A DNA stretch of 64,000 bases from a virus: positions 1 to 64,000 of the IMG/VR virus record IMGVR_UViG_3300048011_000525. One strand, given 5' to 3'. Positions 928-63,578 of this stretch are shown here, piece by piece. The notes beneath the pieces were generated by a model that was not told the origin of the DNA, searched no databases, and was given only the letters and a program-made list of their open reading frames with translations. Position numbers and translations under genes: made by a program. How positions within the stretch are numbered: the first letter of the stretch is position 1; every line of letters begins with the position of its first letter.

Positions 928-1006
928 GTATTGAGGTTTCTAATTCTTTCCTCTCTAGTGCAAAAGAACGGTTGACAAGTGGGGAGAAAGACTGTATAAT
1001 AGCAGC

Positions 1007-1100
1007 CGAGGTTGAGGCATATAGAACCTTCGCCCATCGGGAGTGTTTGTCTTCTACTTGGGGAATTCAGTAGCCCTAACCCTCTTTGCCCTTATTGTTC
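1007..1100 (+). ncRNA. Candidate non-coding transcript complementary to early-gene leaders
   Basis: Promoter at 972-1000 has no ORF before 1252; the transcript contains GCCCTAACCCTCTTTGCCCTTATTGTT. Confidence 0.35.
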
Positions 1101-1104
1101 TTAT

Positions 1105-1133
1105 AGTATACCTTCACTCTAGTCAGAAGTCAA
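1105..1133 (-). promoter_or_regulatory. Leftward sigma70 promoter with no credible downstream ORF
   Basis: Reverse complement reads AAAGAGG-TTGACT-17nt-TATACT, the same cassette as the rightward early promoters. Confidence 0.75.
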
Positions 1134-1251
1134 CCTCTTTTTAGCCAAAATCTTATTTTATTTTTGTGGGTATTTTGGAGAGAAAAAGGTTGACAACAGC
1201 CGGAAATGAGGTTATACTGTATACAGTTAAACAATAAAGAGAGGGCTTAAT

Positions 1252-1491
1252 ATGTACGGAATGTTCACTAAAGAAGGAAATGAATTGGTCGCAAGGATCG
1301 CAGCAGCCGGTGAGAAACTCGCAGCACAAGATGGCGCAGCCAGTGCCTGGGGTTTTTGCTTGCGAAAGTTGGAGACTCTCAGCTATGGCGAAGGCTTTGG
1401 TGAGGCCACTGACACTGATGTGAGAGAGCGAGTCTACGGTGATGTGGTTGCAGCCGCAGATGACACTTGCGATTTTTATCTAGCTCATTGA
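1252..1491 (+). CDS. Hypothetical early protein
   Basis: 79 aa ORF with own promoter and GAGGGC leader. Confidence 0.8.
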   Translation: MYGMFTKEGNELVARIAAAGEKLAAQDGAASAWGFCLRKLETLSYGEGFGEATDTDVRERVYGDVVAAADDTCDFYLAH

Positions 1492-1570
1492 GCAGAAAAA
1501 GGTTGACAGCAGCCGGATTAGATGGTATACTGTATATAACAGTTAGGGCAATATGTGGAGGGCACAGCCG

Positions 1571-1912
1571 ATGAATTTTGTAATTTCAACTCAAGTATTA
1601 GAGAACTATGGCGCTCATTGTGAGGACGGCAAGTTCAGCAGCCAGAACCATTATTGGAAGATGAAGGGCGGCATGGACTATCTGGTCAAGGACCTGGACC
1701 GTGTGCAAGATGCGGTGGCGTTCGTAGCAGCCGCGTTTTCGGACAACAGCCTGGGGTATAAAGAGTTCCCCATCGAGTGGCAGACCGAAGAGGAATGGAT
1801 TGCTAAACTGCCGGACGATGCAGACTATCGTGACTTCCTCAAAGAGCAAGTTTGGGTGGTTAGCCCTAAGACGGGGCGAAAGCACACCAAAGGTTATCCG
1901 GAGGAGTTTTAA
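1571..1912 (+). CDS. Hypothetical early protein
   Basis: Start moved to the ATG after GGAGGGCA; own promoter. Confidence 0.8.
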   Translation: MNFVISTQVLENYGAHCEDGKFSSQNHYWKMKGGMDYLVKDLDRVQDAVAFVAAAFSDNSLGYKEFPIEWQTEEEWIAKLPDDADYRDFLKEQVWVVSPKTGRKHTKGYPEEF

Positions 1913-1913
1913 T

Positions 1914-2090
1914 ATGAATACCTGTTCACACTGTAAGTCAGAGGTTGAGAACAACGCTCTTCGTTGTCCTTACTGCCTAGAGAATCCATATGATAATTTC
2001 GCATTTGAAACTGGTGGAACCTTTTCAACCATACTGGAATGGATACTCGGAACAGCCGTGGTATTGGTTATCCTGGCTTGGATATTTTGA
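1914..2090 (+). CDS. Small zinc-ribbon membrane protein
   Basis: CxxC-x10-CxxC plus hydrophobic C-terminus; GGAGGAG RBS before ATG 1914. Confidence 0.75.
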   Translation: MNTCSHCKSEVENNALRCPYCLENPYDNFAFETGGTFSTILEWILGTAVVLVILAWIF

Positions 2091-2163
2091 GCAAAAAGAG
2101 GTTGACATCTCCTTAAAAGATGCTATTATATAAGAGTAAGTTAAACAAAGCGAGGGCAATAAG

Positions 2164-2373
2164 ATGGCAAATTCAAGAGACGTAGCACTAGAGTTGGTAG
2201 ACAACGGTTTGGTAACAGCCGAGGCGATGCTGACTATGTGCCTAAAGTATATGTCAACAGACGATGTTGAGGATATGCTTGACTGTAATGAGTTGAGCGA
2301 ACGGTTTATGGAAGACGATGACGGGCAGCCGACTTGGGAACAAGAGTGGGCAGACTTTGGGGAGGAATACTAA
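2164..2373 (+). CDS. Small acidic early protein
   Basis: 69 aa; promoter and GAGGGCA leader. Confidence 0.8.
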   Translation: MANSRDVALELVDNGLVTAEAMLTMCLKYMSTDDVEDMLDCNELSERFMEDDDGQPTWEQEWADFGEEY

Positions 2374-2374
2374 G

Positions 2375-2965
2375 ATGCCAAATTGGTGCAATAACAATAT
2401 CACGATTCAGGGATCAACTGAAACTATCAAAACACTTTGGGAAGAGGCTACAGCCGAAGATGGTGGACTGCTATCAGCAATGGTTCCTATGCCCAAGGCT
2501 CTAGAAGGAACTACATCACCTACACCACAAGAAGGTGCCAGCAACTACGAAGGTGAACAGCCGATAGTAGATGGCTACGACAATTGGTATGATTGGTCGG
2601 TGGCCCGATGGGGAACCAAGTGGGATGTATCCACAGAAGGACTAGAGTTTACGGACAACGGAGACGGCACAGCCTCGATCAGTGGTTGGTTCGACAGTGC
2701 ATGGGCTCCACCACTTACTGCATACGAAACATTCTGCGAAAGCATGGACGGTGTCTACATTGAAGCGAGTTATCACGAAGGTGGTATGGACTTCGGTGGC
2801 TTCTGGGATAGCGAGACCGGTGAAGAGCATATGGACGGCATCCAAGAGACTTGGGAACAGTATAAAGACAACCTCGACGATGCTCCTAGTCTGTTCAAAC
2901 GCATAGACGAAGAATACGGTCTATCCGATCAATACGCTGAATGGGAAGAAATGGAAATGGAATAA
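2375..2965 (+). CDS. DUF1281/YubB (Api92)-like protein
   Basis: MPNWCNN start, WGTKW and FDSAWAPP motifs; GGAGG RBS. Confidence 0.75.
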   Translation: MPNWCNNNITIQGSTETIKTLWEEATAEDGGLLSAMVPMPKALEGTTSPTPQEGASNYEGEQPIVDGYDNWYDWSVARWGTKWDVSTEGLEFTDNGDGTASISGWFDSAWAPPLTAYETFCESMDGVYIEASYHEGGMDFGGFWDSETGEEHMDGIQETWEQYKDNLDDAPSLFKRIDEEYGLSDQYAEWEEMEME

Positions 2966-3032
2966 AAGAGGTTGACAAGGATGTCTTCCTATGCTATAGT
3001 ATAAACACAATAAGAGATTAGGAGGGCATCCA

Positions 3033-3314
3033 ATGTCAACAGATTTAAGAAACGTTCCAGACTGTGTAGCACAGAACGAATTGACTCAGACACGCTTTTG
3101 GGGTGGCAAGGATCGATTGACTTGCATACAGATCACTCAACGCAAACCCAAGTATGATCCAGACAACGGCGGAGCAATGTTTAACCATATACAGTTGACC
3201 AAGCATCAAGCTCGTATGTTGGCAACAGAATTGATGTTGTTTGCAGAGGGCCGCGAAGTAGAAGAGTTGGCTGAGTTGGATGATGCAACATTTGGTGAAG
3301 AGGAGCCAGCGTAA
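3033..3314 (+). CDS. Hypothetical early protein
   Basis: Promoter and GAGGGCA leader. Confidence 0.8.
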   Translation: MSTDLRNVPDCVAQNELTQTRFWGGKDRLTCIQITQRKPKYDPDNGGAMFNHIQLTKHQARMLATELMLFAEGREVEELAELDDATFGEEEPA

Positions 3315-3514
3315 TGAGACGATCCTATCGTATATACGGAATCAAGGACGGTGGCAAGGAAGAGTTTGTCACTTCAGTATCCGCAGCAGCCGACGGCAAA
3401 GCTGCACACCAGGCAATGAAGCTGCAAGGCTACTTCGATCGCATCGTTTGTCGTGATGTGCTAGGTGGCTTGCGTTTTGAATATAATTTAAAAACTGGTA
3501 GAAAATTGGCATAA
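3314..3514 (+). CDS. Hypothetical early protein
   Basis: TAATG coupling to the upstream gene; GAGGAG RBS. Confidence 0.75.
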   Translation: MRRSYRIYGIKDGGKEEFVTSVSAAADGKAAHQAMKLQGYFDRIVCRDVLGGLRFEYNLKTGRKLA

Positions 3515-3586
3515 AAGAGGTTGACAACTGAGCACTTCGGTGCTATTATATAAGAGTAAGTTAACAAAGCTAGAAGGGCAAACAAA

Positions 3587-4051
3587 ATGGCAACACGTTC
3601 AAACATCGCATACAAAACAGCAGAAGGCAAAATCCGCAGCGTCTACAGCCACTGGGATGGCTATGTAGCAAACAATGGTCGCATCCTAGAGGAGAGCTAC
3701 CAGGACCAAGCAAAGATTGAAGCATTGGTTGCACTAGGTAGCATCAGCAGCCTGGGAGCAGAACTAGGCGAGCAGCAGGACTTCAACGATCGCAGCACAC
3801 AACAAGACGATTGGACACTAGCATATCATCGTGACCGTGGTGAAGATTTGGTTGTTAGCGAATACGACGACATTCCAAGTTGGATCAACGACATGGAGGA
3901 ATACGCTTACCTGTGGAACGGCAAGGAATGGCTTGTAAACGATCACGGTGCTAAGGACGCAAACGGCTTTCCTGTGTTCGACTTGCTGTCAACTGTAGTG
4001 CCAATCGAACTAGCACGTATGGAGCAGCGCATCGCAGCAGCCGCAAATTAA
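3587..4051 (+). CDS. Conserved-type phage hypothetical protein
   Basis: MxTRS...YxHWDGY motif; own promoter. Confidence 0.8.
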   Translation: MATRSNIAYKTAEGKIRSVYSHWDGYVANNGRILEESYQDQAKIEALVALGSISSLGAELGEQQDFNDRSTQQDDWTLAYHRDRGEDLVVSEYDDIPSWINDMEEYAYLWNGKEWLVNDHGAKDANGFPVFDLLSTVVPIELARMEQRIAAAAN

Positions 4052-4135
4052 TTTGGTATTTTGGCAAATTAGGGGTTGACAGCAGCCCCTAATGAGGCTA
4101 TACTATATATAACAGTTAGGAAAGAGGGCAAACAA

Positions 4136-4324
4136 ATGAAACAGACAATTGGTTTTATCTTAATCGTAGTAGGAATGATGGTAGCAGCCGGTAGTGCTGG
4201 GGACTGTGACGGACAGTGTATGGAATACGCTAACAGCCTGAGCGAGATGCTTATGATCGCAGCAGCCGGAATTTTTGCTATGGTAGTAGGTGCGTTGGCA
4301 GTTTTTTCTGCACAAAATGATTAA
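4136..4324 (+). CDS. Small two-TM membrane protein
   Basis: ATG after GAGGGCA; two hydrophobic segments flanking CDGQC. Confidence 0.75.
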   Translation: MKQTIGFILIVVGMMVAAGSAGDCDGQCMEYANSLSEMLMIAAAGIFAMVVGALAVFSAQND

Positions 4325-4395
4325 TTAGGGGTTGACAAACTCCGCAGTAGATGGTATACTGTATATAACAGTTAAACAATTGAGAGGCAAATAAC

Positions 4396-4713
4396 ATGAC
4401 ACAGAAAACTTTTGAAGTAGCAGGTACATCAACACTAAATGGCGTGACTAAGGTAAGGTTCGCAAATGACTATGTAGGTCGTTTCAAGATCCTTGTTAAG
4501 AACGGACACGAGAACATTGAGTTGATGGAACTAGGTGAGAAGATGACCAAGGCAGACATCTGCAAGGTATTGATTGCTCATCCAAACTTCCAAGGTGAAG
4601 ATCAGCAGAGTGCGATCGCAGAATTTGTTGTACGAAATGTGAAGGCGCAGCCGGAGCAGACAGAAACAACAAAGGTGGAAGCAGCCGAAGACGTCGAAGC
4701 AGAATTGGCGTAG
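4396..4713 (+). CDS. Hypothetical early protein
   Basis: 105 aa; own promoter; GAGGCA leader. Confidence 0.8.
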   Translation: MTQKTFEVAGTSTLNGVTKVRFANDYVGRFKILVKNGHENIELMELGEKMTKADICKVLIAHPNFQGEDQQSAIAEFVVRNVKAQPEQTETTKVEAAEDVEAELA

Positions 4714-4816
4714 GCACTTCCACAACCAGGGCGTCCTTGTGTAGCAGCCGGGACACTCCAATAGAGAGCGGTGGGGCTCATTGGACACATTATTGCAGCA
4801 GCCAGAGGATCGGGCA

Positions 4817-4945
4817 TTGGAACTAAATGAAATCATCGCAGTCGTAGGGATTGCATTCACATCATTCATGGCGGGGTATCTACTTTCAGAGATGCATTCA
4901 TTCCGCAAGTATATCAAAGAAAATTGTTTGAAGGAGACTTCATAA
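4817..4945 (+). CDS. Small single-TM protein (42 aa, not in ORF track)
   Basis: TTG start after AGAGGA; MELNEIIAVVGIAFTSFMAGYLL... Confidence 0.45.
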   Translation: MELNEIIAVVGIAFTSFMAGYLLSEMHSFRKYIKENCLKETS

Positions 4946-4952
4946 AGACTTA

Positions 4953-5029
4953 GGGCCTTTAGCTCAATTGGTTAGAGCACCGGACTCATAATCCGTAGGT
5001 TCCGAGTTCGAGTCTCGGAGGGCCCACCA
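4953..5029 (+). tRNA. tRNA with CAT anticodon, most likely tRNA-Ile2 (lysidine type)
   Basis: GGGCCTT/AGGGCCC acceptor stem, CTCATAA loop, TTCGAGT T-loop, encoded CCA; not initiator-like. Confidence 0.9.
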
Positions 5030-5034
5030 AGTAA

Positions 5035-5111
5035 CTGCCCTTAGCTCAGCAGGATAGAGCAAGAGATTTCTAATCTCTAGGTCGGGGGTTCGAATCCCTC
5101 AGGGCAGGCCA
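5035..5111 (+). tRNA. tRNA-Arg(TCT)
   Basis: CTGCCCT/AGGGCAG acceptor stem, AGAGA-TTTCTAA-TCTCT arm, CCA. Confidence 0.95.
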
Positions 5112-5115
5112 ATTA

Positions 5116-5199
5116 GCCTCCGTGGTGGAATAGGTAGACACAAGGGACTTAAAATCCCTCGCTTATGGCGTCCCGGTTCGAGTCCGGGCGGAGGCACCA
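5116..5199 (+). tRNA. tRNA-Leu(TAA)
   Basis: GCCTCCG/CGGAGGC acceptor stem, AGGGA-CTTAAAA-TCCCT arm, long variable arm, CCA. Confidence 0.95.
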
Positions 5200-5200
5200 A

Positions 5201-5300
5201 GTTTAGGGAGTTGAGCAGCCGAACGAGCCGCCCTCACTCAAAGGTACCGCAGCGTATGCCCTCACGCTAAGGAACGCTCCTCCCTAAGCCCTTTGGGCAG
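5201..5300 (+). ncRNA. Candidate structured sRNA with GCCCUC (anti-leader) loops
   Basis: Closing stem 5201-5210/5280-5289; inner hairpins TTGAG/CTCAA and AGCGT-ATGCCCTC-ACGCT. Confidence 0.6.
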
Positions 5301-5334
5301 CAGCCGAGGTTCCAGAACCATCAGGCATCAGTTT

Positions 5335-5364
5335 ATTATAACACAGAGCAGCCGGGGTTGTCAA
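5335..5364 (-). promoter_or_regulatory. Leftward sigma70 promoter, antisense to the sRNA/tRNA cluster
   Basis: Reverse complement TTTAGG-TTGACA-18nt-TATAAT. Confidence 0.7.
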
Positions 5365-5473
5365 CCTAAAAATAACCAAAATAAAATTAAAAAATGGCAA
5401 ATAAAAGGTTGACAGTAACAGCAAACGAGGCTATACTGTATACAGTTAAACAATAAAGCAAAGAGGGCAAACT

Positions 5474-5812
5474 ATGCTTACAATTACTAAAACTGGTTTT
5501 GAACAGAACGACGACTACACTAGCACTTTTTACGGTGTAGAAGGCGCGGTGACGCTTGCTGGCGACAGCTTATGGGGTGACACTGCGGGGCGAGTTGTTA
5601 ACGTTGAAGGCATTACTGTAACAGAAGAACAGTACGGTGAAGAGGCTGACGACAAGTACATGCACGTGACAGTGACACACGACAGCACGTGGGACATTTA
5701 CACTGACACTGCGTTTGCTGTAGCAATTAGCGAAGCGTTGGGCATGGACATTGACTTTACGGAGCAAGGCATGCAAGACGACGGACACGCGAGCATGGAA
5801 GTGTACAGTTAA
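5474..5812 (+). CDS. Hypothetical acidic early protein
   Basis: Promoter and GAGGGCA leader. Confidence 0.8.
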   Translation: MLTITKTGFEQNDDYTSTFYGVEGAVTLAGDSLWGDTAGRVVNVEGITVTEEQYGEEADDKYMHVTVTHDSTWDIYTDTAFAVAISEALGMDIDFTEQGMQDDGHASMEVYS

Positions 5813-5900
5813 AAAAGTGGCAAAAAAGAGGTTGACAACGGCCTCTTTGTTTGCTATACTGTATATAACAGTTAGGGCAATAAGTAGAAGGAACTACGCA

Positions 5901-6095
5901 ATGATCAAAGTATTCAACAGCGCATACCGTGAGTCGATCGAGCAGCCGAAGATGATTCCACTGGATGAAGTCAACATCGTAACACAGAACATCCACAACG
6001 GCGCTCCTTACATCTTGTTCGAGCACAAAGACTATCCGCTGGGCGCACTGAGCGCAACCTTCGACGGTGAGTATTGGGCTTGTGACCTTGATTGA
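5901..6095 (+). CDS. Hypothetical early protein
   Basis: ATG at 5901 after AAGGA; promoter at 5832. Confidence 0.7.
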   Translation: MIKVFNSAYRESIEQPKMIPLDEVNIVTQNIHNGAPYILFEHKDYPLGALSATFDGEYWACDLD

Positions 6096-6187
6096 TGATC
6101 CGTGTGATGATTGGTACCCATTAGGGGTTGACAAACCAAAGAAGTGACTGTATACTGTAAGTATAACAATTAGGAAAGAGGGCAAAC

Positions 6188-6457
6188 ATGGAAAAATCAA
6201 TTTACGAAGTAGGTGAACAGCACAAACAACTAGCAGCCGTTGGTAGACGCATGATGGACATGAGCGAGTATGCCAATTGCAAGGGCATGAAGGATGAAGA
6301 CTTCAAATTGCTCAACGACATGAGTCACGTAGGCAACCTGCTTACCAAATTGGGCAATGCGTTTGGTCCTAAGCTGGACAAAGACTTTACAGCCGAGGAT
6401 ATGGATTTAATTGCTCGTTTTATGAAAAAAGAGATTGACATTCCGCAGATGCGGTAG
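6188..6457 (+). CDS. Hypothetical early protein
   Basis: Promoter and GAGGGCA leader. Confidence 0.8.
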   Translation: MEKSIYEVGEQHKQLAAVGRRMMDMSEYANCKGMKDEDFKLLNDMSHVGNLLTKLGNAFGPKLDKDFTAEDMDLIARFMKKEIDIPQMR

Positions 6458-6495
6458 TATACTGTATATAACAATTAGGGCAAAGGGCAAAACAA

Positions 6496-6633
6496 ATGAT
6501 TAAAACACTAGGTTGGTTAACAGTAATTGGAATAGGTCTTTACACAGGGATCCTACAGGCCATGTTGATATTTGCTGGTGCTGCGGTTATTTGGGTTGGT
6601 ACTTTGCTCGCTAGTTTGGGAGGCGCGATATGA
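6496..6633 (+). CDS. Small hydrophobic membrane protein (45 aa, not in ORF track)
   Basis: Promoter at 6435, AGGGCA twice in the leader, MIKTLGWLTVIGIGL...; stop overlaps the next ATG. Confidence 0.7.
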   Translation: MIKTLGWLTVIGIGLYTGILQAMLIFAGAAVIWVGTLLASLGGAI

Positions 6634-6863
6634 AATGGGTTTTGATAGCAAGCGTTCTTAACTGGCAACCAGTATATGACGATCAGAAGACCTGTCAACT
6701 AGCAGCCGAAGAGCTCAAGAAGGTATATTACCAAGAAGTCGCTGCGTGTATTCCAAAGCCGACTAACACAGCCGGTGAGAATGAGAATGTGGACCGCATG
6801 TTCGAACAGTTCATGAATATGGTAAAAGAACTACAAAAAGAAGTTGACAACGGCAACAACTGA
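6630..6863 (+). CDS. Hypothetical protein
   Basis: ATGA overlap; GGAGG RBS. Confidence 0.75.
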   Translation: MKWVLIASVLNWQPVYDDQKTCQLAAEELKKVYYQEVAACIPKPTNTAGENENVDRMFEQFMNMVKELQKEVDNGNN

Positions 6864-6907
6864 ACGTATACTACATATATAAATTAACTTAACGCTGTGA
6901 GGGCACA

Positions 6908-7912
6908 ATGACAAACATTACAATCAAAGAAGGCACATACAAAATCCGTGGTAAAGACGTAGACCTATCAGGTATGACTTTTCCACTAGTAGAAGAATTC
7001 AAAGTAGGAGCACGAGGTGGCTACGTAACAGTAGACGGTTCAGCAGTTGCTGGCTTTCCACAGCGTAACATCAAGATCATGTGCGCAAGTGCAGATGACT
7101 ATGCCCAAACTGATGCTGCAATTAATACAGCAGCAGTAGAGGAGAGTGACGAAGAAGTTATCGAACGTATCCGTGAACGCTTTGACATGTTGAAGGACAT
7201 GACCAAAGCAGTCAAGAAAGGTGCTGTGCGAGCTATGATCGTTTCAGGACCTCCAGGTGTTGGTAAGTCGCATGGTGTAGAAGAAGTACTAGAGCGTTAC
7301 GACACACTAGAACATCTAGGTGGTTCCTCTAAGTATACAATTGTTAAAGGTGCAATGAGCCCAATCGGACTCTACTGTAAGCTGTTCAACTACGCAGACA
7401 AAGACAACGTTATCGTGTTCGATGACTGTGATGCGATCTTCGAAGAGCCACTTGCACTTAATATTTTAAAAGCTGCTCTAGACAGCAAGAAGAAACGTAC
7501 TATTCACTGGAACACAGACAGTTTCAAGTTGCGTAATGAAGGTGTGCCGGATTCATTCGAGTTCAAAGGTTCAGCGATCTTTATTACCAACCTTGACTTC
7601 CATGACGTAAAGAGCAAGAAGATACGCTCGCACTTGGAAGCACTAGAGTCACGTTGTCACTATATGGATTTAACTATCCACTCTGAGCGCGACAAGATGC
7701 TCAGAATTGCACAAGTCATCAAGGACGGAATGCTAGATAGTTATAAGGTGTCCGATGAAGTCAAAGAAGAAATCATTGATTTCGTGGACATTAATAAGAA
7801 GCGACTAAGAGAACTGTCATTGCGTACAGTACTTAAGGTAGCCGACTTAGCAGTTGCATTTCCAGATCGTTGGGAAGCAATGGCTGAGAACACTGTTATG
7901 AAACATTCTTAA
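6908..7912 (+). CDS. AAA+ family ATPase
   Basis: Walker A GPPGVGKS, Walker B VIVFDD, sensor ITN, ALESR arginine finger. Confidence 0.85.
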   Translation: MTNITIKEGTYKIRGKDVDLSGMTFPLVEEFKVGARGGYVTVDGSAVAGFPQRNIKIMCASADDYAQTDAAINTAAVEESDEEVIERIRERFDMLKDMTKAVKKGAVRAMIVSGPPGVGKSHGVEEVLERYDTLEHLGGSSKYTIVKGAMSPIGLYCKLFNYADKDNVIVFDDCDAIFEEPLALNILKAALDSKKKRTIHWNTDSFKLRNEGVPDSFEFKGSAIFITNLDFHDVKSKKIRSHLEALESRCHYMDLTIHSERDKMLRIAQVIKDGMLDSYKVSDEVKEEIIDFVDINKKRLRELSLRTVLKVADLAVAFPDRWEAMAENTVMKHS

Positions 7913-8034
7913 TGCCCTCAAGAATCATAACAGTTCAAGTGTTAAGCAGGCACCCCTCATAGCCCTCACGCTCTGCTAACACATGCGCCCGGAGTAGGAC
8001 ATGCCCTCGTCCAATACACTCCGGGCTTTTTTTT
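7892..8034 (+). ncRNA. Candidate 3-prime-UTR sRNA: three hairpins with GCCCUC loops ending in an intrinsic terminator
   Basis: Stems 7892-7934, 7939-7982, 7987-8026 followed by T8; GCCCTC at 7914, 7962, 8003. Confidence 0.65.
7987..8034 (+). terminator. Rho-independent terminator
   Basis: GCCCGGAGT...ACTCCGGGC followed by T8. Confidence 0.85.
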
Positions 8035-8120
8035 GATCTTTTTTTGATTTAGGGGTTGACACAGCCGCCATTTGATTATAAGCTGTATATAACAGTTAAC
8101 AAAGCAAGAGGGCAAAAGCA

Positions 8121-8513
8121 ATGACAACTGTAATTAAAGAGAACTTCCGCAAGTGTTCAGTAGAGGGATGCAACAAGCTGGGCCAGCACATGGGCAAGTA
8201 TCGCAAAGACGGATCACCTGTACGCAGAGCCAAGTGTGCCAAACATCATTCAATTGACTACGGCATGAAAGGTTGGGACTACAAGCAACACCGCAAAGAC
8301 TACTGTGAGAACCGTGACGGACGCTTGGGCTTCACCTGCACATCAACTATTGTAGATCCAGAGTGGCAACTAGACGCAGATCACATCAACGGCAACCCAA
8401 GCGACAATCGTCCTGAGAACATACAGACACTGTGCAAGTGCTGTCACCCAATCAAAACTAAAATGGAAGGTGATTACCTAACAGCCGGTCGCAAAGCATA
8501 CGGGGTAAAATAA
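8121..8513 (+). CDS. HNH endonuclease-like zinc protein
   Basis: DHINGNPSDNRPENIQTLCKCCH. Confidence 0.8.
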   Translation: MTTVIKENFRKCSVEGCNKLGQHMGKYRKDGSPVRRAKCAKHHSIDYGMKGWDYKQHRKDYCENRDGRLGFTCTSTIVDPEWQLDADHINGNPSDNRPENIQTLCKCCHPIKTKMEGDYLTAGRKAYGVK

Positions 8514-8599
8514 TTACGCAATTTGGTAAAAAAGAGGTTGACAACCGGCCTCTTTTTTTATATACTGTATATAACAGTTAAGCAAATGAGGGCAAACAA

Positions 8600-8971
8600 A
8601 TGCTAGTAACTAAACACACCGAGGAAAGCACACACAAGTTTTTTGCAATAGCAGACATTGAAGCTCGTGCTCGTGCAGCGTACAATGCAAACAAGCAGCT
8701 ATTTGAAAGTGCTGCACACCAGCAGCGTGTAGAACTTGTAGACACTATACTACGCAACATGCTCGCGGGCTACACTACAGCATATCAAACTGCTCGCGCT
8801 GCTACTAAACGCAAAGCAGCACACACAGAAGTCAAGTACGACCGCGTAATACAATACACAAGCAACAAGCACAAGCAGCTACGTGCAGCAGCCGTTGAGC
8901 AACTAGCAGCACTTGGACTTGACTTAGTATACAAACCCAAAACAAACAGCTATAGCGTACACGTACTATAG
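8600..8971 (+). CDS. Hypothetical basic early protein
   Basis: Promoter and GAGGGCA leader. Confidence 0.8.
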   Translation: MLVTKHTEESTHKFFAIADIEARARAAYNANKQLFESAAHQQRVELVDTILRNMLAGYTTAYQTARAATKRKAAHTEVKYDRVIQYTSNKHKQLRAAAVEQLAALGLDLVYKPKTNSYSVHVL

Positions 8972-9071
8972 CAGCCGCGGCCTGTGGATAACTTTTTGGT
9001 AAAAAAGAGGTTGACAAACACACACTCAGATCATATACTGTATGTATAAGTTAAAGCAAAGAGGGCACAAT

Positions 9072-9332
9072 ATGAAACGCAACATTAGAGCAGCATACAC
9101 AAAACTAAAAGCACTTGGTGCTCCCGTGTATGAAGGTGGTTGGAATGGTGAAGACACATTCCGAATCTCAGGAGAGGACAACGGCGACACCCTTTGGGCA
9201 GACTACTATGAAGAGTTTGTGCCCAGCACATGGGAGTTTGGTGTTAATCCTATTATCACTAAGGTACTGGACAAGCATGGCTTGTTTGCAGAATGGTGCA
9301 ATGCTGGTGTGCTTAATGTATATGAGAATTGA
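9072..9332 (+). CDS. Hypothetical early protein
   Basis: ATG at 9072 after GAGGGCA. Confidence 0.8.
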   Translation: MKRNIRAAYTKLKALGAPVYEGGWNGEDTFRISGEDNGDTLWADYYEEFVPSTWEFGVNPIITKVLDKHGLFAEWCNAGVLNVYEN

Positions 9333-9403
9333 GCAAATAAAGGTTGACACACAGCACACAGATGCTATACTGTATATATAAATTAACGTAGAGGGCTAAA
9401 CAA

Positions 9404-9799
9404 ATGAACAACGAAACACTTACTCCAAACGCACTAGCAGAACGTTACACTGTAGAAGACCTACAGGCAATGCTCAACACTGCTGAGCAAGCGGCACGAA
9501 CTGCACAACATGACTTCCTAGAGCAGTGGAACACTAGCACAGGTGGTAACCAATATGGTGAGCCAATGTACTGTGGCTTTGCTTGGGTTAACATACACGG
9601 TGTTAAAGGCAATACTAAGATTGGTAGACGCTTGAAGTTGGCAGGTGTACAGCAGAGCTGGGACAAGAGCTTCCAAGTATGGAACCCAGGTTCACACGGT
9701 GGACAGAGCATGGATGTTAAAGAAGCAGGTGCTAGAGCATATGCAGATGTATTAACAGCATACGGCTTTAGAGCTTACCCAGGTAGCAGAGCAGACTAA
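9404..9799 (+). CDS. Conserved-type phage hypothetical protein
   Basis: CGFAWV and QSMDVKEAGARAYA motifs; promoter and GAGGGC leader. Confidence 0.8.
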   Translation: MNNETLTPNALAERYTVEDLQAMLNTAEQAARTAQHDFLEQWNTSTGGNQYGEPMYCGFAWVNIHGVKGNTKIGRRLKLAGVQQSWDKSFQVWNPGSHGGQSMDVKEAGARAYADVLTAYGFRAYPGSRAD

Positions 9800-9832
9800 T
9801 ACAGCAGGCTAGGCTGATGGGAGGCAAAAGAT

Positions 9833-9946
9833 ATGGATTTAATTAAAGTGTTGGCTTTTGTAGGGATTGGTTTGGCTATCGGCCAGATATATGTGCATTT
9901 TGCACTAAGGGAATTCTGGAAAGACCATAATGGTGACGACAAATAA
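9833..9946 (+). CDS. Small single-TM protein (37 aa, not in ORF track)
   Basis: GGGAGG RBS; MDLIKVLAFVGIGLAIGQIYV... Confidence 0.6.
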   Translation: MDLIKVLAFVGIGLAIGQIYVHFALREFWKDHNGDDK

Positions 9947-9967
9947 GAAGAACTGTGTGTGGGAAAA

Positions 9968-9996
9968 GATCCTTGCGTGATGCAGGGATTTTTTTT
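9968..9996 (+). terminator. Intrinsic terminator closing the early module
   Basis: ATCCTTGC-GTGAT-GCAGGGAT followed by a T run. Confidence 0.75.
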
Positions 9997-22012: not shown

Positions 22013-23749
22013 TTAAAAATATACTTTGAAACCAGTTTTCCAGTTACGCCCTAATTGACTATAACCGTTTGGTCTCTGGTATTCCTTATTACTAATGTTA
22101 TATATCCCTGCAAACACTTCTAAGTTATTTTTTTTATAATTTAATTCTGTATTATAAATTACTATAGGATCTATATTCATTGTTTCAAATGTTATACTAT
22201 TAATATCTTTGTGCTTGCCATAGTAGTCTGCGTCAAAAGAATACACAATGTTGTCTACTATTGTTGCTAGTTTTAAATTATTAGTAACTTTAGGACGTCT
22301 TAGTTTTTGATTACCATTTGATGTCTTAGCATCTATAACAGCAACATTATTTTCTATAAAGAACTGTCCTATTTCATAGTTAAGTGTATTTTCAATACCT
22401 TTAGTGTAACTTGTATTGTTGTCGTTAATATATGTGCCATTATATACTATAGCATTTTGTTCTTGTGTTACAAACAAAGCCGTGTTTGAAAAGTTATTTT
22501 CGTAACCTATTTCATAACTTATAGTATCTTCTTCTAATAGATTAGGGTTACCTGTAAAGCCGTAATTGTCCTGTCCGTACATTTCGTATAGTGTTGGAAT
22601 TCTATATCCTGTTGATACACTAGCTCGCACACCGTTATTAAAGATACCTATTCTTCCTGTATTCTTTTCTCCGAATTCGTTTATGATATCATGTCTTATA
22701 CCATATGCTAGTGCAGTGTTGCCGATTATAGTATTTGAATTTATAAAAATACCTTTAGTTGTTCTCTTCTTGTCTACACTGCTTGTATAAGGAAACGCAC
22801 TATTAATGTTTATTAAAAAGTCTGCACTAACCTTTTCAACTTCAGTGCCAATAATTACATCAGTATTATTATAATTTAATTTATGCGATCCGTAGAAGGT
22901 GTCTACTGTACTATCATAGTCGCCTTCTAATTTAAAATCTTTTGTGTACACTCTATTATGATTAGAATTATTATACGTTAGTCTACTTTTTTCATTTGTA
23001 TAATCTAACTGTATGTTTTGCCAATTCCACTTGCCTGTATAATTTAATGTATCTGTTGTTGAGTCTAGTGCAGAATAATTTGTTTCGTTTATATAATTAA
23101 CCCGTATGTTATTATGATCGTCACTGTGTACTAAATTTAAATTTATGTTATCGTAATCATGGGGGTCTTTTTCTTCGCCATTTGGATAAACACTTATGCC
23201 GTCAGTTTGAAAAGACTCGATACTAACAGTATAGTTTAAGGTTGGAGATATCTGTCCTGATAGTTGTGCTTCTGCTGTAAGTAAATTATTACTACCCACA
23301 GTTGAGGAAATATACGATCTACCTGTAATATCAGATACTAAGTTAATTACACCTCCAGATGCATTAGCACCGTATGAACTGCTCATAGGACCTTTGTATA
23401 GTTCTATATTACTAATACCTGTAAAGTTATGTTGACCAATATCGTCAGTGCCAGTAGGGCTACTTTGATCTTTGATTGAAATGCCATTGAGTGTTATAAG
23501 GCTCTGATCGCTATCTGCTCCTCTAATATACAAAGAGCTCATTTGTCCTTTTGGTCCACTAGATAATATATCCACACTAGACACTTCGTTGAGTTCGTCT
23601 GTTTCTATAATTTCATAAGAGTACGTCGAGTTTGCAAAATACGACGGTGTCCTATCGGCATATACATAAATTACTAGCTCTGTAGCAAATGTTGAGGTCG
23701 CAAAAAAAGCCGCGAAAAACGCGACTAATAGTTTATTATAATTATTCAT
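22013..23749 (-). CDS. TonB-dependent outer-membrane receptor (BtuB-like)
   Basis: Signal peptide, plug IRG, IELYKGPMSSSYGANASGGVINLV, GNPNLLEE, C-terminal GR..KTGFKVYF. Confidence 0.88.
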   Translation of the reverse strand: MNNYNKLLVAFFAAFFATSTFATELVIYVYADRTPSYFANSTYSYEIIETDELNEVSSVDILSSGPKGQMSSLYIRGADSDQSLITLNGISIKDQSSPTGTDDIGQHNFTGISNIELYKGPMSSSYGANASGGVINLVSDITGRSYISSTVGSNNLLTAEAQLSGQISPTLNYTVSIESFQTDGISVYPNGEEKDPHDYDNINLNLVHSDDHNNIRVNYINETNYSALDSTTDTLNYTGKWNWQNIQLDYTNEKSRLTYNNSNHNRVYTKDFKLEGDYDSTVDTFYGSHKLNYNNTDVIIGTEVEKVSADFLININSAFPYTSSVDKKRTTKGIFINSNTIIGNTALAYGIRHDIINEFGEKNTGRIGIFNNGVRASVSTGYRIPTLYEMYGQDNYGFTGNPNLLEEDTISYEIGYENNFSNTALFVTQEQNAIVYNGTYINDNNTSYTKGIENTLNYEIGQFFIENNVAVIDAKTSNGNQKLRRPKVTNNLKLATIVDNIVYSFDADYYGKHKDINSITFETMNIDPIVIYNTELNYKKNNLEVFAGIYNISNKEYQRPNGYSQLGRNWKTGFKVYF

Positions 23750-30492: not shown

Positions 30493-31956
30493 TTAATTCC
30501 AATCTACTTTTTCTATAGTGAAAGGATACTGTGCTTCCTTATAGAACTTTTTACGTTGTGTTAGATGTCGTTTTGCAAATTTGCACGTTGAAGTGATATC
30601 CCAAATTTGTACGAAGTCTTTGTCTTTTGCCTTTCGAACGCCTCTGCCTATAGATTGAATTACCCGGACAAAACTTTTGCCAGGCTCAATGAGAACAAGA
30701 TTAAAAATACGCGGTATATTAATACCGACAGCCGCGACGCCGTATGTGGCGATAACGACATGATTAGTTCCTTCATTGATTTCATCATATGCCTCCTTGC
30801 GATCCTTTAGTTTAACATCGCCTTTTACGAAAACACTTCCTGGTATTAGTTCTTGTAGTGCTTCGCCAGCACTAATTCTATCTACTAGTATTAGAGTGTT
30901 TCCTGATTGTTTTACTGTGCTTAATAGTTTGCCTATATATTCTAGTCTATCTTTATTTGTTGTTAGATATTTTAATTCTGATTGATAATCTGTATGTGCT
31001 TGCGTGTCCATTAGTTGTACAACATTGACATGGCACTGAGATAGCACGCCTTTGTCTTGCAGTTCCTTAGCACTAATCTGTCCAATAACTGGACCAAGAC
31101 TAGCATGAATGCTTTCAAACTCAAACTTCTCTTTAGGTACTGTGCCAGTTAGTCCCCAACGGATAGGAGCATTACGTAGGTTGCGTGTAAGCAAGTTCTT
31201 AAGAACTTCTGCTTTGGCTTGGTGTACTTCGTCGACAATGATAGTGCTCACGCCTTCTAAGAACTCAGCTAGTGATAGTACTGCTGATCCGTCCTTGTGC
31301 TTCTTGTCTAGAATATTCAAACTCTGCCAAGTGCAAATAGTGTGAGTCTTACCTAACTCTTTTCTGTCGCCGAAGTACACCCCTACATCCAAACCACAGT
31401 TAATATAGTCTTCTTCTGTTTGAGTGACTAGACTCTTATTAGGCACAATAACAAGGCTACGCCCGTAAGATTCAGTTATGTGACTAAGAGTTGCTGTGGT
31501 AATTGTCTTACCTGCACCAGTTGCAATCTGTTGCAAGCTCTGAGGATGTTGTAAAAAATTATTAATCGATTCTACTTGATAGTCACGTAGAATAATATCT
31601 TCTCCTTCTGCTGGATGACCTTTAGGCCATACAACACCTTGATCTTTCCAATAGTTTTCTGTTACTGGAGTAAAATTAAATTGTATCGGATGCCTGTTGT
31701 CTTCAATATCAACTATTTGCACATTGTTTTTAGCAAGTATATCACTAACAACATCAAGGTGATTAACGTATCCTGTGCCACCTATGCCAAAGAAAGCAAC
31801 CTTGCCGTCCCAGCGTCCTAGTTTATATTGCGGCATATACTTTGCATACGGCACTTCAAACTTTAGTGCGTTCGCAACTTTTCTTCGTACGTCAACCTCT
31901 AGTCCTTCTAGCTTAATGTTTACTTCATCTTCAATTATTAATTTACATGACGCCAT
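30493..31956 (-). CDS. uvsW: UvsW-like SF2 helicase
   Basis: LRDYQ, ATGAGKT, DEVH, QSIGRGVR. Confidence 0.92.
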   Translation of the reverse strand: MASCKLIIEDEVNIKLEGLEVDVRRKVANALKFEVPYAKYMPQYKLGRWDGKVAFFGIGGTGYVNHLDVVSDILAKNNVQIVDIEDNRHPIQFNFTPVTENYWKDQGVVWPKGHPAEGEDIILRDYQVESINNFLQHPQSLQQIATGAGKTITTATLSHITESYGRSLVIVPNKSLVTQTEEDYINCGLDVGVYFGDRKELGKTHTICTWQSLNILDKKHKDGSAVLSLAEFLEGVSTIIVDEVHQAKAEVLKNLLTRNLRNAPIRWGLTGTVPKEKFEFESIHASLGPVIGQISAKELQDKGVLSQCHVNVVQLMDTQAHTDYQSELKYLTTNKDRLEYIGKLLSTVKQSGNTLILVDRISAGEALQELIPGSVFVKGDVKLKDRKEAYDEINEGTNHVVIATYGVAAVGINIPRIFNLVLIEPGKSFVRVIQSIGRGVRKAKDKDFVQIWDITSTCKFAKRHLTQRKKFYKEAQYPFTIEKVDWN

Positions 31957-61602: not shown

Positions 61603-61626
61603 CTCAAAAGACTGTATAATATGAGT

Positions 61627-62763
61627 ATGAAAGTTTTAGTTCTCGGTGACATCATTGTCGACAAATATATCTACGGTACATCAACACGCATTAGCCCAGA
61701 AGCGCCAGTGCCTGTTGTAACATATCAGCGTGAAGTTGAGACTGTAGGTGGTGCCGGACTTGTTTACGAAAATCTTAAAAGTCTAGGTGTAGATGTTACT
61801 CTGTTTGTAATGCCTGGAAAGCCAAGCGTTAAAACACGAGTTATATGTGACGGACATTATATAACACGCATCGACAACGATGTACACACAAACGGATTAG
61901 ATGTATTAAAACGTGTATTAACTACCGACTTTACAGTATATGATTATGTTATTTTAAGTGATTACAATAAAGGTACACTAGACGAAAGTATTGAAATAAT
62001 CAAACACATTAATACATACGGATGTCGTATTATTGTTGATCCTAAAGAACACTCTAGTCACTATGAAGGTGCTTGGTTAGTAAAACCCAACGAAAAAGAA
62101 TTTCAAGAATACTTTATCAACTGGCACGGTAACATTATTACAACTAGAGCAGATAAAAGCGTTGTTGCTAACATTGACAATGAAGTATTTGAAATAGATG
62201 TGGAGCCGGTTGAGGTATCGGATGTAACAGGAGCAGGAGATTGTTTCTTAGCAGCATTTGTATATGGTCTTACTAAAGGTTATGATTACAAACATGCAAT
62301 TGAACTAGCAGTTAAAGGCTCTACAGAAAGTGTTAAGCATGTAGGCACATACACGCTACAACAGCGCGATTTAGAAGAAAGAGTAGTCTTTACTAATGGA
62401 GTATTTGATATACTGCACAAGGGTCATTTTGAGCTCTTAAAAGAAGCTAAATTTCTCGGTGCTAAACTAATTGTAGGTATTAATAGCGATGCTAGTGTAA
62501 AACGTCTTAAAGGCGAAACACGCCCAATTAATAATCAAATGAAGCGTATTAGTCAGTTAGAAATTTTACCGTGGGTAGATCAAGTAGTTGTATTTGATGA
62601 AGATACCCCATACGAATTAATTAAAAAAATTAAGCCGCATGTAATAGTTAAGGGCGGCGACTATACAGTAGAAACCGTAGTAGGACACGATTTAGCCGAG
62701 GTGCATCTTGTACCTACTGTTGAAGGCTACAGCACTACAGAAATTATAGAGGCAAGCAAATGA
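61627..62763 (+). CDS. hldE: Bifunctional heptose-7-P kinase / heptose-1-P adenylyltransferase
   Basis: RISPEAPVPV, DVTGAGD, FTNGVFDILHKGH, VKGGDY. Confidence 0.93.
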   Translation: MKVLVLGDIIVDKYIYGTSTRISPEAPVPVVTYQREVETVGGAGLVYENLKSLGVDVTLFVMPGKPSVKTRVICDGHYITRIDNDVHTNGLDVLKRVLTTDFTVYDYVILSDYNKGTLDESIEIIKHINTYGCRIIVDPKEHSSHYEGAWLVKPNEKEFQEYFINWHGNIITTRADKSVVANIDNEVFEIDVEPVEVSDVTGAGDCFLAAFVYGLTKGYDYKHAIELAVKGSTESVKHVGTYTLQQRDLEERVVFTNGVFDILHKGHFELLKEAKFLGAKLIVGINSDASVKRLKGETRPINNQMKRISQLEILPWVDQVVVFDEDTPYELIKKIKPHVIVKGGDYTVETVVGHDLAEVHLVPTVEGYSTTEIIEASK

Positions 62764-63578
62764 AAATTTTAATTACTGGCCATAAAGGATTTATTGGACA
62801 AAATCTAACCCTGTTCTTACAAAACGAACACGAACTATTTGGATACGAATGGCAAGAAGATAGCTTACCAGAAGTTGAAGGTTTTGATTGGGTTATACAT
62901 ACTGGAGCGATTAGCAGCACTACAGAAACAGATGTAGATAAAGTAATGTTGCAAAATTACGAGTTTAGTAAATGGTTATATAACGAATGTAATACTAAAG
63001 GTGTTAATTTGCAATATGCATCAAGTGCAAGTGTTTACGGAACAAATACAGAGTTTAGCGAAGATGCTCCTAAACAGCCACAGAGCCCTTATGCTTGGAG
63101 CAAGTATTTGTTTGATCGCTGGGTTTGGGGTTTAAGTTCTCATAATATTATTGTACAAGGTTTCCGTTACTTTAATGTATACGGTCCATTTGAGGATCAT
63201 AAAGGTAATCAGGCAAGTCCAGTTACTAAGTTTACTGAACAAGCAATTAAGACTGGTAGAATAAAACTATTTGAAAACAGTGATAAGTACTTACGTGATT
63301 TTATATTTGTAGGCGATGTGTGCGAAGCACATAAACAATTGTTAGAAAATAAAACAGCAGGTCTGTATAATATAGGTACTGGTAACACAACTAGTTTTAA
63401 AGAAGTAGCAGAAGTAATTGCTAAAAAATATAATGCTGAAATTACAGAAATACCAATGCCAAAAAACTTAAAAGGACAATATCAAGAATATACTTGTGCA
63501 GACACAAATAAATTAAGTACAGTAACAGATATTGATTTTGCAACAGTAAAGGAGTATGTAAATGAGTCAACCAACTAG
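62760..63578 (+). CDS. hldD: ADP-L-glycero-D-manno-heptose 6-epimerase
   Basis: GAISSTTE, YASSASVYG, Y.WSK, RYFNVYGP.E.HKG, YQ.YT.AD. Confidence 0.92.
   Translation: MKILITGHKGFIGQNLTLFLQNEHELFGYEWQEDSLPEVEGFDWVIHTGAISSTTETDVDKVMLQNYEFSKWLYNECNTKGVNLQYASSASVYGTNTEFSEDAPKQPQSPYAWSKYLFDRWVWGLSSHNIIVQGFRYFNVYGPFEDHKGNQASPVTKFTEQAIKTGRIKLFENSDKYLRDFIFVGDVCEAHKQLLENKTAGLYNIGTGNTTSFKEVAEVIAKKYNAEITEIPMPKNLKGQYQEYTCADTNKLSTVTDIDFATVKEYVNESTN

Follow-up and report, generated by a model that had tools for sequence, protein, structure and literature searches.

The closest described counterparts of the element reported here are the Chi arrays that some phages carry at one end of the genome. Phage LLS of Escherichia coli has 23 Chi sites, 20 of them in the active orientation and concentrated at one end, and phage MD8 of Pseudomonas aeruginosa carries 32 copies of the Pseudomonas Chi, every one on the same strand, clustered at an end (PMC12315714). 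In both phages Chi is the commonest octamer, does not follow from codon usage and is missing from close relatives (PMC12315714). Oriented sites are also known from mycobacteriophages, where the L5/TipsytheTRex repressor binds >20 asymmetric 13-mers whose orientation follows transcription (PMC9283540). Here we analyse an array of the 7-mer RCAGCCG in a 64,000-nt stretch of viral DNA (positions 1 to 64,000 of the IMG/VR virus record IMGVR_UViG_3300048011_000525; hereafter, the window), in which 31 copies, all on the + strand, lie within a single module of early genes.

The array resembles those of LLS, MD8 and P1 in that a short asymmetric word is the most over-represented one, lies almost wholly on one strand and is concentrated towards one end, which here is a contig end and a probable genome end (PMC12315714); codon usage again provides no explanation, and the array is again present in some phages and absent from close relatives. 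It differs in that RCAGCCG/CGGCTGY matches no known Chi, in that the copies are ~7 times denser and fall within 8 kb, and in that they are carried not by a Rec-less lambdoid phage but by a T4-related jumbo myovirus that itself encodes UvsX, gp32 and UvsW. RCAGCCG is clearly a directional signal maintained by selection.

A polar array in the early module

A sequence search of the window located 31 + strand copies of RCAGCCG in 1002-8977 and none on the − strand of that interval; all 31 positions counted by eye in a first-pass annotation, made from the letters alone, were exact. The array comprises 21 GCAGCCG and 10 ACAGCCG, at a density of one copy per 260 bp. Elsewhere in the window the word occurs on the + strand at 30728, 47689 and 63825 and on the − strand at 831 and 21219, all of which had been noticed before save that at 30728. 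Dinucleotide shuffles of the window gave 7.0 ± 2.5 copies (both strands pooled) against 36 observed, and under an order-2 Markov model of the early region 1.81 copies would be expected on the + strand (P about 2e-27) and 0.41 on the − strand. The full 115,582-bp contig has 35+/5− copies; its remaining 105 kb hold 4+/4− against 6.3/5.8 expected, i.e. the word is neither enriched nor avoided there. An equal and unpolarised density outside the early module, which the first-pass annotation had named as fatal to its proposal, is therefore not seen.

In an unbiased k-mer scan, CAGCCG, GCAGCCG and AGCAGCCG lead the 6-, 7- and 8-mer lists, above the promoter and ribosome-binding-site words. A purine precedes the CAGCCG core in 31/31 copies, whilst the flanks are little informative (there is a preference for A at −1, and codon phase accounts for the G at +3). 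The single-substitution variants of RCAGCCG are not enriched, with the exception of RCAGCAG (13 observed against 4.9 expected). This variant is also polar in the early module (+/−, 13/0), which we judged to be incidental.

Copy density declines from left to right. By quarters of the module the counts are 12/10/5/4 in the window (Kolmogorov–Smirnov p 0.07) and 12/8/2/2 in the related contig L011 (p 0.003). The array ends ~1 kb short of the terminator that closes the module, and three early transcription units (5409-5832, 6844-8056 and 9011-9996) have no copy at all; the AAA ATPase gene at 6908-7912 has none, as had been stated from first inspection. The copies at promoters and the lone copy in the opposite orientation are:

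1002-1008, + strand: first copy, lying at the start site expected for the first early promoter (972-1000), 1 nt past its TATAAT box; ACAGCCG in L011
1196-1202, + strand: copy in a promoter spacer, directly after the TTGACA −35 box
1509-1515 and 8061-8067, + strand: promoter-spacer copies placed like that at 1196, just after the −35 box
5348-5354, + strand: spacer copy within a leftward promoter with 12/12 consensus positions (5364-5335), + orientation kept
831-837, − strand: lone inverted copy, CGGCTGT on the + strand, just upstream of the first early promoter; orthologous in L011 (685)

Selection at the nucleotide level

Of the 31 copies, 22 are in genes, 17 as RCA-GCC-G (Ala/Thr-Ala) and five as CAG-CCG (Gln-Pro), and the other nine are intergenic. 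The use of two reading frames, and the presence of copies between genes and inside −35/−10 spacers, had both been remarked on in the first-pass annotation and are confirmed by this count. When synonymous codons were shuffled with the proteins kept, 2.7 ± 1.5 copies (maximum 9) were obtained, compared to the 22 in genes, and when codon order was shuffled, 1.3 were expected. The enrichment thus persists under codon and amino-acid correction, where its loss would have counted against a signal. GCC is a minor Ala codon in the early genes (29/210), and 17 of these 29 codons are inside RCAGCCG. Where Ala/Thr-Ala is followed by a codon that starts with G, xCA-GCC is used in 17/29 cases; before codons with any other first letter, in 2/22.

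From the synonymous shuffles and the context in which GCC is used, it follows that the enrichment was selected at the nucleotide level. Since the copies occupy two frames, intergenic DNA, promoter spacers and the first start site, their placement ignores what the DNA encodes. These data support RCAGCCG as a selected, strictly polar signal that is independent of frame and coding status and is confined to the early module.

Carriers and non-carriers among relatives

Relatives were fetched via the ATPase (80 IMG/VR loci and 80 metagenome loci). The same word, on the same strand and in the same place, forms an array in at least 12 distinct contigs, so that the equivalent motif sought in relatives does exist. 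The flanks of the ATPase gene hold (+/−) 24/1 copies in L011, 20/2 in L430, 17/0 in L396, 13/0 in L423, 11/0 in L424, 9/0 in L009 and 8/0 in L425; the further carriers are the short contigs L391, L392, L393 and L400. In L011 (75.7 kb; L199 is the same contig), 24/26 same-strand copies are within the terminal 8.4 kb, and the 37-kb contig L009 is similar. In five long contigs of non-carriers the word occurs about once in 10 kb, on both strands and unclustered.

Between the window and L011, 9/14 alignable sites are kept within blocks that are 67-83% identical (2.0 expected, P 5e-6), and between the window and L009, 5/7 are kept (1.3 expected, P 0.003). At kept sites, the first position frequently switches between A and G. 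The non-carriers L012 and L010 encode the same residues at those sites with other codons, e.g. GCGGCG, ACTGCC and CAACCT. Judged from this retention of orthologous sites and the synonymous codons of the non-carriers, the RCAGCCG sites are under purifying selection.

In a quick maximum-likelihood tree of the ATPase, the carriers are all in one half (41 rows) and none is in the other (27 rows). Within the carrier half they are interleaved with non-carriers, and the branches starred in the tree require at least five changes. Core genes agree with the ATPase tree, the non-carrier G003 being as near to the window as the carrier G001. None of the early-module gene families tracks array status, and in the first 48 kb no gene is common to the three long carrier contigs yet missing from non-carriers. 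The nearest cultured relatives are PA5oct-like Pseudomonas jumbo phages (ATPase 47% identical, gp15-like protein 31%); a megablast search of 1-10 kb against GenBank phages for a close cultured relative matched a tRNA only. A scan of IMG/VR with a promoter-plus-word pattern returned chiefly chance matches in GC-rich contigs, with an excess of 2-5-fold at most.

Two ideas about base pairing and mimicry were tried and rejected. A guide RNA in which CGGCTGT at 831 pairs with ACAGCCG and, via G-U, with GCAGCCG has no extended flank complementarity, and is also contradicted by the preferred −1 base, which is A in the window and T in L011. The presence of AGCAGCCG in the universal 16S 515-536 segment was judged incidental, as L011 prefers ACAGCCG and the flanks do not lengthen the match.

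The early module and its phage

The contig (115,582 bp, recorded as linear, CheckV completeness 33%) is part of a marine T4-related jumbo myovirus of roughly 350 kb; related contigs extend to 236-358 kb. It encodes a tail sheath, a T4 gp15-like protein and a T4-type large terminase, a UvsX-like RecA together with a gp32-like protein and a UvsW-like helicase (41.6-43.7 kb and 30.5-32.0 kb), and several open reading frames (ORFs) of 1,700-4,000 aa. Past the window, the − strand of contig G000 encodes a pair of neighbouring giant ORFs at 78538-98501 (4,021 and 2,620 aa), and further on another two, of 1,739 and 1,894 aa.

The early cassette module spans 972-9996 and contains ~20 small + strand genes, three tRNAs and a terminator at its end. 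A ribosome-binding box, GAGGGCA, is common to the early genes. The principal features are:

972-9371, + strand: 17 near-consensus sigma-70-type promoters, GGTTGACA-N17-TATACTGTATA, matching 11-12/12 consensus positions, about one per small gene
4953-5199, + strand: tRNA-Met, tRNA-Arg and tRNA-Leu, within the array
6908-7912, + strand: AAA ATPase (phrog_1250), conserved, free of RCAGCCG, the marker used for fetching relatives
9962-9996, + strand: strong terminator-like hairpin that closes the early module

Apart from the AAA ATPase and an HNH protein, the products of the ~20 early genes have no assigned function, and an Rfam search found the three tRNAs and nothing else. The architecture of 972-9996 is that of a T4-type early cassette module, a hyperplastic region like those with promoter early stem-loops (PeSLs). 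T4-type hyperplastic regions consist of small lineage-variable ORFs, each behind a strong early sigma-70 promoter (PMC2839356, PMC4122927). As with PeSL cassettes, the module has many small variable ORFs, each with its own strong early promoter and shuffled among relatives (PMC2839356, PMC4122927): gene content is mosaic among 51 early-module loci, and the cassette architecture is common to all relatives examined. PeSLs are intergenic units made of a promoter and a stem-loop; RCAGCCG is distinct from them, a word that runs across genes and spacers, and most relatives with the same cassette architecture do not have it.

Two leftward promoters, at 1133-1105 (10/12) and 5364-5335 (12/12), face or back onto rightward early promoters (972-1140 and 5335-5437); the leader region and the tRNA cluster would be covered by antisense RNAs from them. 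The HNH endonuclease ORF (8121-8513, + strand) has no counterpart in any fetched relative and is probably a recent homing-endonuclease insertion; its neighbour, ORF 8600-8971, is likewise specific to the window. Outside the module, a 578-aa ORF at 22013-23749 (− strand) has TonB-dependent receptor Plug and beta-barrel domains and is shared, among the fetched relatives, only with G002 (67%). GT8 and GT25 glycosyltransferases and a Methyltransf_24 protein are encoded at 34.9-40.9 kb, and a bifunctional kinase/cytidylyltransferase-like ORF (HldE-type domains) and an NAD-dependent epimerase adjoin the neck/tail genes at 61621-63578 (+ strand).

Metagenomes that contain DNA of the window come from at least 13 studies, of seawater, marine and estuary samples. 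A pattern scan for the host by way of the TonB-receptor-like gene found no close bacterial homologue. We also screened 300 Gammaproteobacteria for an excess of the word; word/control ratios were mostly 0.4-2.5, with one outlier, G102. Three of the 300 (G052, G154 and G309) are unpublished genomes, and nothing stated here depends on them. In an order-2 Markov test on the fetched 394 kb of G102, there were 94 copies against 115 expected. The word is thus not over-represented in G102, and the reversed word used as the control is therefore a poor null.

The left border

Two features lie between the contig end and the first early promoter:

1-720: ORF-free, repeat-rich block between the contig end and the early module, full of CACTATATAG and GTCACTA words
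294-314, + strand: 21-mer GTATTTGAACTATGCCTCTCG, perfectly conserved in 20 IMG/VR contigs, with flanks that are unalignable on both sides

In nearly all relatives the 21-mer is found 0.4-2 kb ahead of the first early promoter, where it marks the start of the module on its upstream side and is directly preceded by short, A-rich tandem words. It may be a landmark for packaging, for a terminus or for an origin. The sequence AGGCCCCGCT occurs twice in the 1-720 block, and several related contigs break there. Among the related contigs >100 kb, 11/17 end <8 kb upstream of the ATPase, and the contigs of the window, L011, L035, L036 and L049 end 24-293 bp to the left of the 21-mer. The 39-kb terminal repeat of PA5oct is rich in early genes (PMC7318152), which provides a precedent in the lineage for early genes at a terminus. 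A terminal location of the early module is probable in the window's phage as well.

Sequencing depth was examined using Logan exact-match contigs. In run X1, depth was 34-46 over about 2.3-10.1 kb, 19-21 at 10.3-12 kb and 15-26 in the bins of 1-800. The block at roughly 0.8-10.2 kb was thus ~2x deeper in X1, with a 2:1 step at either edge of the module; in X2, X3 and X5 it was about 1.1-1.7x deeper, the contigs being too short to reveal ends.

What reads the word

We tentatively favour the array as a Chi-like polar DNA signal, 5'-CGGCTGY-3' on the bottom strand, that acts on a host end-processing nuclease (probability roughly 0.36); a reader of DNA or RNA encoded by the phage itself is almost equally likely. 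The array would be written into the chromosome segment next to the probable genome end, a segment that would be expressed first. A RecBCD- or AddAB-type helicase-nuclease would enter from the left and scan the strand that has its 3' end there, the bottom strand. The dense, co-oriented copies would switch the enzyme from degradation to an attenuated, recombinogenic mode within the first few hundred bases; the early genes would be spared and the recombination-dependent replication of the phage possibly fed. It is the geometry described in PMC12315714, combined with entry at the left end, that makes the bottom strand the one read and 5'-CGGCTGY-3' the candidate word. We infer the host nuclease as reader, the left border as the physical first-entering end, and the choice of strand.

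Several features are consistent with this proposal. Chi is a short (5-8 nt), asymmetric and strongly over-represented word, and here a 7-mer is present in 31 copies versus 1.8 expected. The copies are co-oriented (31:0) and their density falls from a contig end that is a recurrent break, yet one that is internal in about 20 contigs. CGGCTGY also has, after its CG, the GCTG with which the Chi sequences of E. coli and Pseudomonas open, although this is a weak resemblance. Of the first-pass suggestion of a Chi-like or other directional site, the selected polar signal holds and the Chi-like reading has a direct precedent in print (PMC12315714), whilst the reader itself is not established.

Several observations speak against a Chi-like role. 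The word matches no published Chi, and a full-text literature search with either orientation returned no biological signal. Chi-rich lambdoid phages typically have no Rec module, whereas this phage has its own recombination proteins; array density is about seven times that in LLS or MD8; and PA5oct has no array of Pseudomonas Chi (4+/7−, scattered). The inverted copy at 831 is conserved and is wrongly oriented for the model. The test of candidate hosts for excess and skew of the word, which had been proposed, gave one apparent outlier among the 300 sampled Gammaproteobacteria, and this did not stand up to the Markov model; neither the receptor-gene scan nor the word screen identified a host or a skewed host word. 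The earlier placement of the array on a terminal or first-entering segment is not established either, as the contig is a fragment and about 20 contigs run on through the same border, with + strand genes to its left; depth gives no consistent terminal-repeat signal across runs. Early modules from about 50 other relatives have no word of comparable strength (best P 1e-5 to 1e-9, compared to 1e-14 to 1e-19 in carriers), and scans of these modules for 5-, 6- and 7-mers recovered promoter and ribosome-binding-site words plus weak matches, and nothing else. An array, of whatever word, is therefore not a strategy of the family. Finally, all 31 copies are also on the sense strand of early transcripts, so that a transcription-linked or RNA-level reader fits the polarity equally. 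As every early gene is on the + strand, DNA strand and sense strand are inseparable here. The copy at 5348 had been put forward as evidence that the motif follows the DNA strand and not transcription; it does sit in + orientation within a leftward promoter, but it also lies in + strand read-through downstream of the tRNAs.

Among readers made by the phage, a DNA-binding protein with oriented, stoperator-like sites would cause early shut-off by an orientation-dependent polymerase block, or would coat and protect the DNA. Made after infection or co-injected, it would bind the asymmetric word along the early module and stop elongating host RNA polymerase. This we consider unlikely, although it accounts for copies that are all co-oriented with early transcription and confined to a module under host-type promoters, for those at operator-like promoter positions (1002, 1196, 1509 and 8061), and for a sharp specificity with a purine-tolerant first position, which is typical of protein–DNA recognition. 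A single word that is present or absent among close relatives (at least five changes on the tree) would also fit gain and loss of a phage gene. The stoperators of Cluster A mycobacteriophages are similar in being tens of asymmetric sites oriented with transcription, some in promoters (PMC9283540, PMC6550527), and the 31/31 copies here match the + strand early genes in the same manner. However, stoperators are 13-14 bp, bound by a monomeric repressor, and lie in promoters and short intergenic gaps genome-wide in temperate phages with an identified repressor. RCAGCCG is confined to the early module and has seven conserved positions with uninformative flanks, which is short for a specific DNA-binding protein; 22/31 sites are in coding sequence and not in short intergenic gaps. 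In addition, no repressor candidate was found among the early proteins; no gene tracks the array, whether among the early-module families or in the first 48 kb; nothing points to a temperate lifestyle; several early transcription units are without a copy; and the left-to-right gradient has no obvious role. There is a substantial, though less than even, chance that RCAGCCG is instead the address label of an undescribed lineage-specific system whose reader, encoded by the phage in the unassembled two-thirds of its genome, shuts off, shields or processes the first-expressed module. The signal might instead be read in early transcripts, as a mark for a sequence-specific endoribonuclease or RNA-binding protein, of the phage or of the host, that times decay or translation; we think this improbable. 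T4 RegB, which cuts GGAG in early mRNAs, is the model for such a role. The position of 31/31 copies on the sense strand would suit it, as would the opposite-strand copy at 831, which would be sense in a leftward transcript from the 1133-1105 promoter. So too would the confinement of the array to early genes, with no copies in the conserved ATPase gene and the last early units, as might be expected of longer-expressed genes. Against this, copies in promoter spacers and upstream of or at the first start are outside the RNA from that promoter; predicted RNA folds show no greater accessibility for RCAGCCG than for control GC-rich 7-mers (0.382 versus 0.385, p 0.75); the 20 early proteins include no match to RegB or another nuclease save the window-specific HNH; internal positions show no wobble tolerance; and the density gradient is unexplained.

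Another directional DNA process is improbable too. We considered a translocase word for genome entry or segregation, comparable to FtsK-orienting polar sequences (KOPS) or SpoIIIE recognition sequences (SRS); lagging-strand priming sites for forks moving towards the end; and a decoy for a defence enzyme with asymmetric sites, in the style of Type III, Type ISP or bacteriophage exclusion (BREX) systems. The strict polarity and the place beside a probable end speak for such processes. Type III, Type IIL and BREX sites are asymmetric, 6-7 bp long and have adenine on one strand only, a format that RCAGCCG shares, and its patchy occurrence among near relatives would fit strain-variable host defences. 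The trinucleotides GCT and CTG used by the T4 gp61 and DnaG primases are both contained in the bottom-strand word, but primase trinucleotides are abundant without the 7-mer. KOPS and SRS are skewed 8-mers that act genome-wide and converge on a resolution site; the present array is local, limited to 8 kb with 4+/4− in the rest of the contig, and the earlier suggestion of a KOPS-like guide is not borne out. Nor is there a sign of restriction avoidance, since neither the word nor its inverse is depleted elsewhere (4 and 4 against 6.3 and 5.8), and enriching a restriction site has no known benefit. In T7, all EcoP15I CAGCAG sites are in one orientation, which is read as escape from cleavage that needs inverted sites. 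The likeness is that of a short asymmetric CAG-containing word on one strand; the enrichment in T7 is modest and genome-wide, whereas here it is about 17-fold and local, with no depletion elsewhere. A non-functional origin, in which the array would be a side effect of composition or codon habits, of a mutational process or of a dispersed repeat, is very improbable and largely excluded. The early module is indeed more GC-rich (44-47%) than the remaining contig, and the related word RCAGCAG is likewise enriched on the + strand. The enrichment of RCAGCCG is, however, ~17-fold over the Markov model and 8-fold over synonymous shuffles; the rare codon GCC is used specifically within its context; the site flanks are not conserved, and so the sites are not part of a longer repeat; the sites are kept despite 20-30% nucleotide divergence; and relatives of like composition and proteins do not have the array.

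Implications

Should RCAGCCG be the Chi of a marine host not yet in culture, the phage would reveal the recombination hotspot of that host. The Chi-like role would, if true, take end-clustered Chi arrays beyond small temperate phages, to a jumbo phage related to T4 that has its own recombinase, and the leading early-gene segment would need protection before phage proteins exist. If the reader is instead encoded by the phage, the array would represent a new way to address a whole gene module, via a 7-mer written into coding sequence. In either case the carriers and their array-free sister phages provide a natural experiment, in which the same proteins are encoded with and without RCAGCCG.

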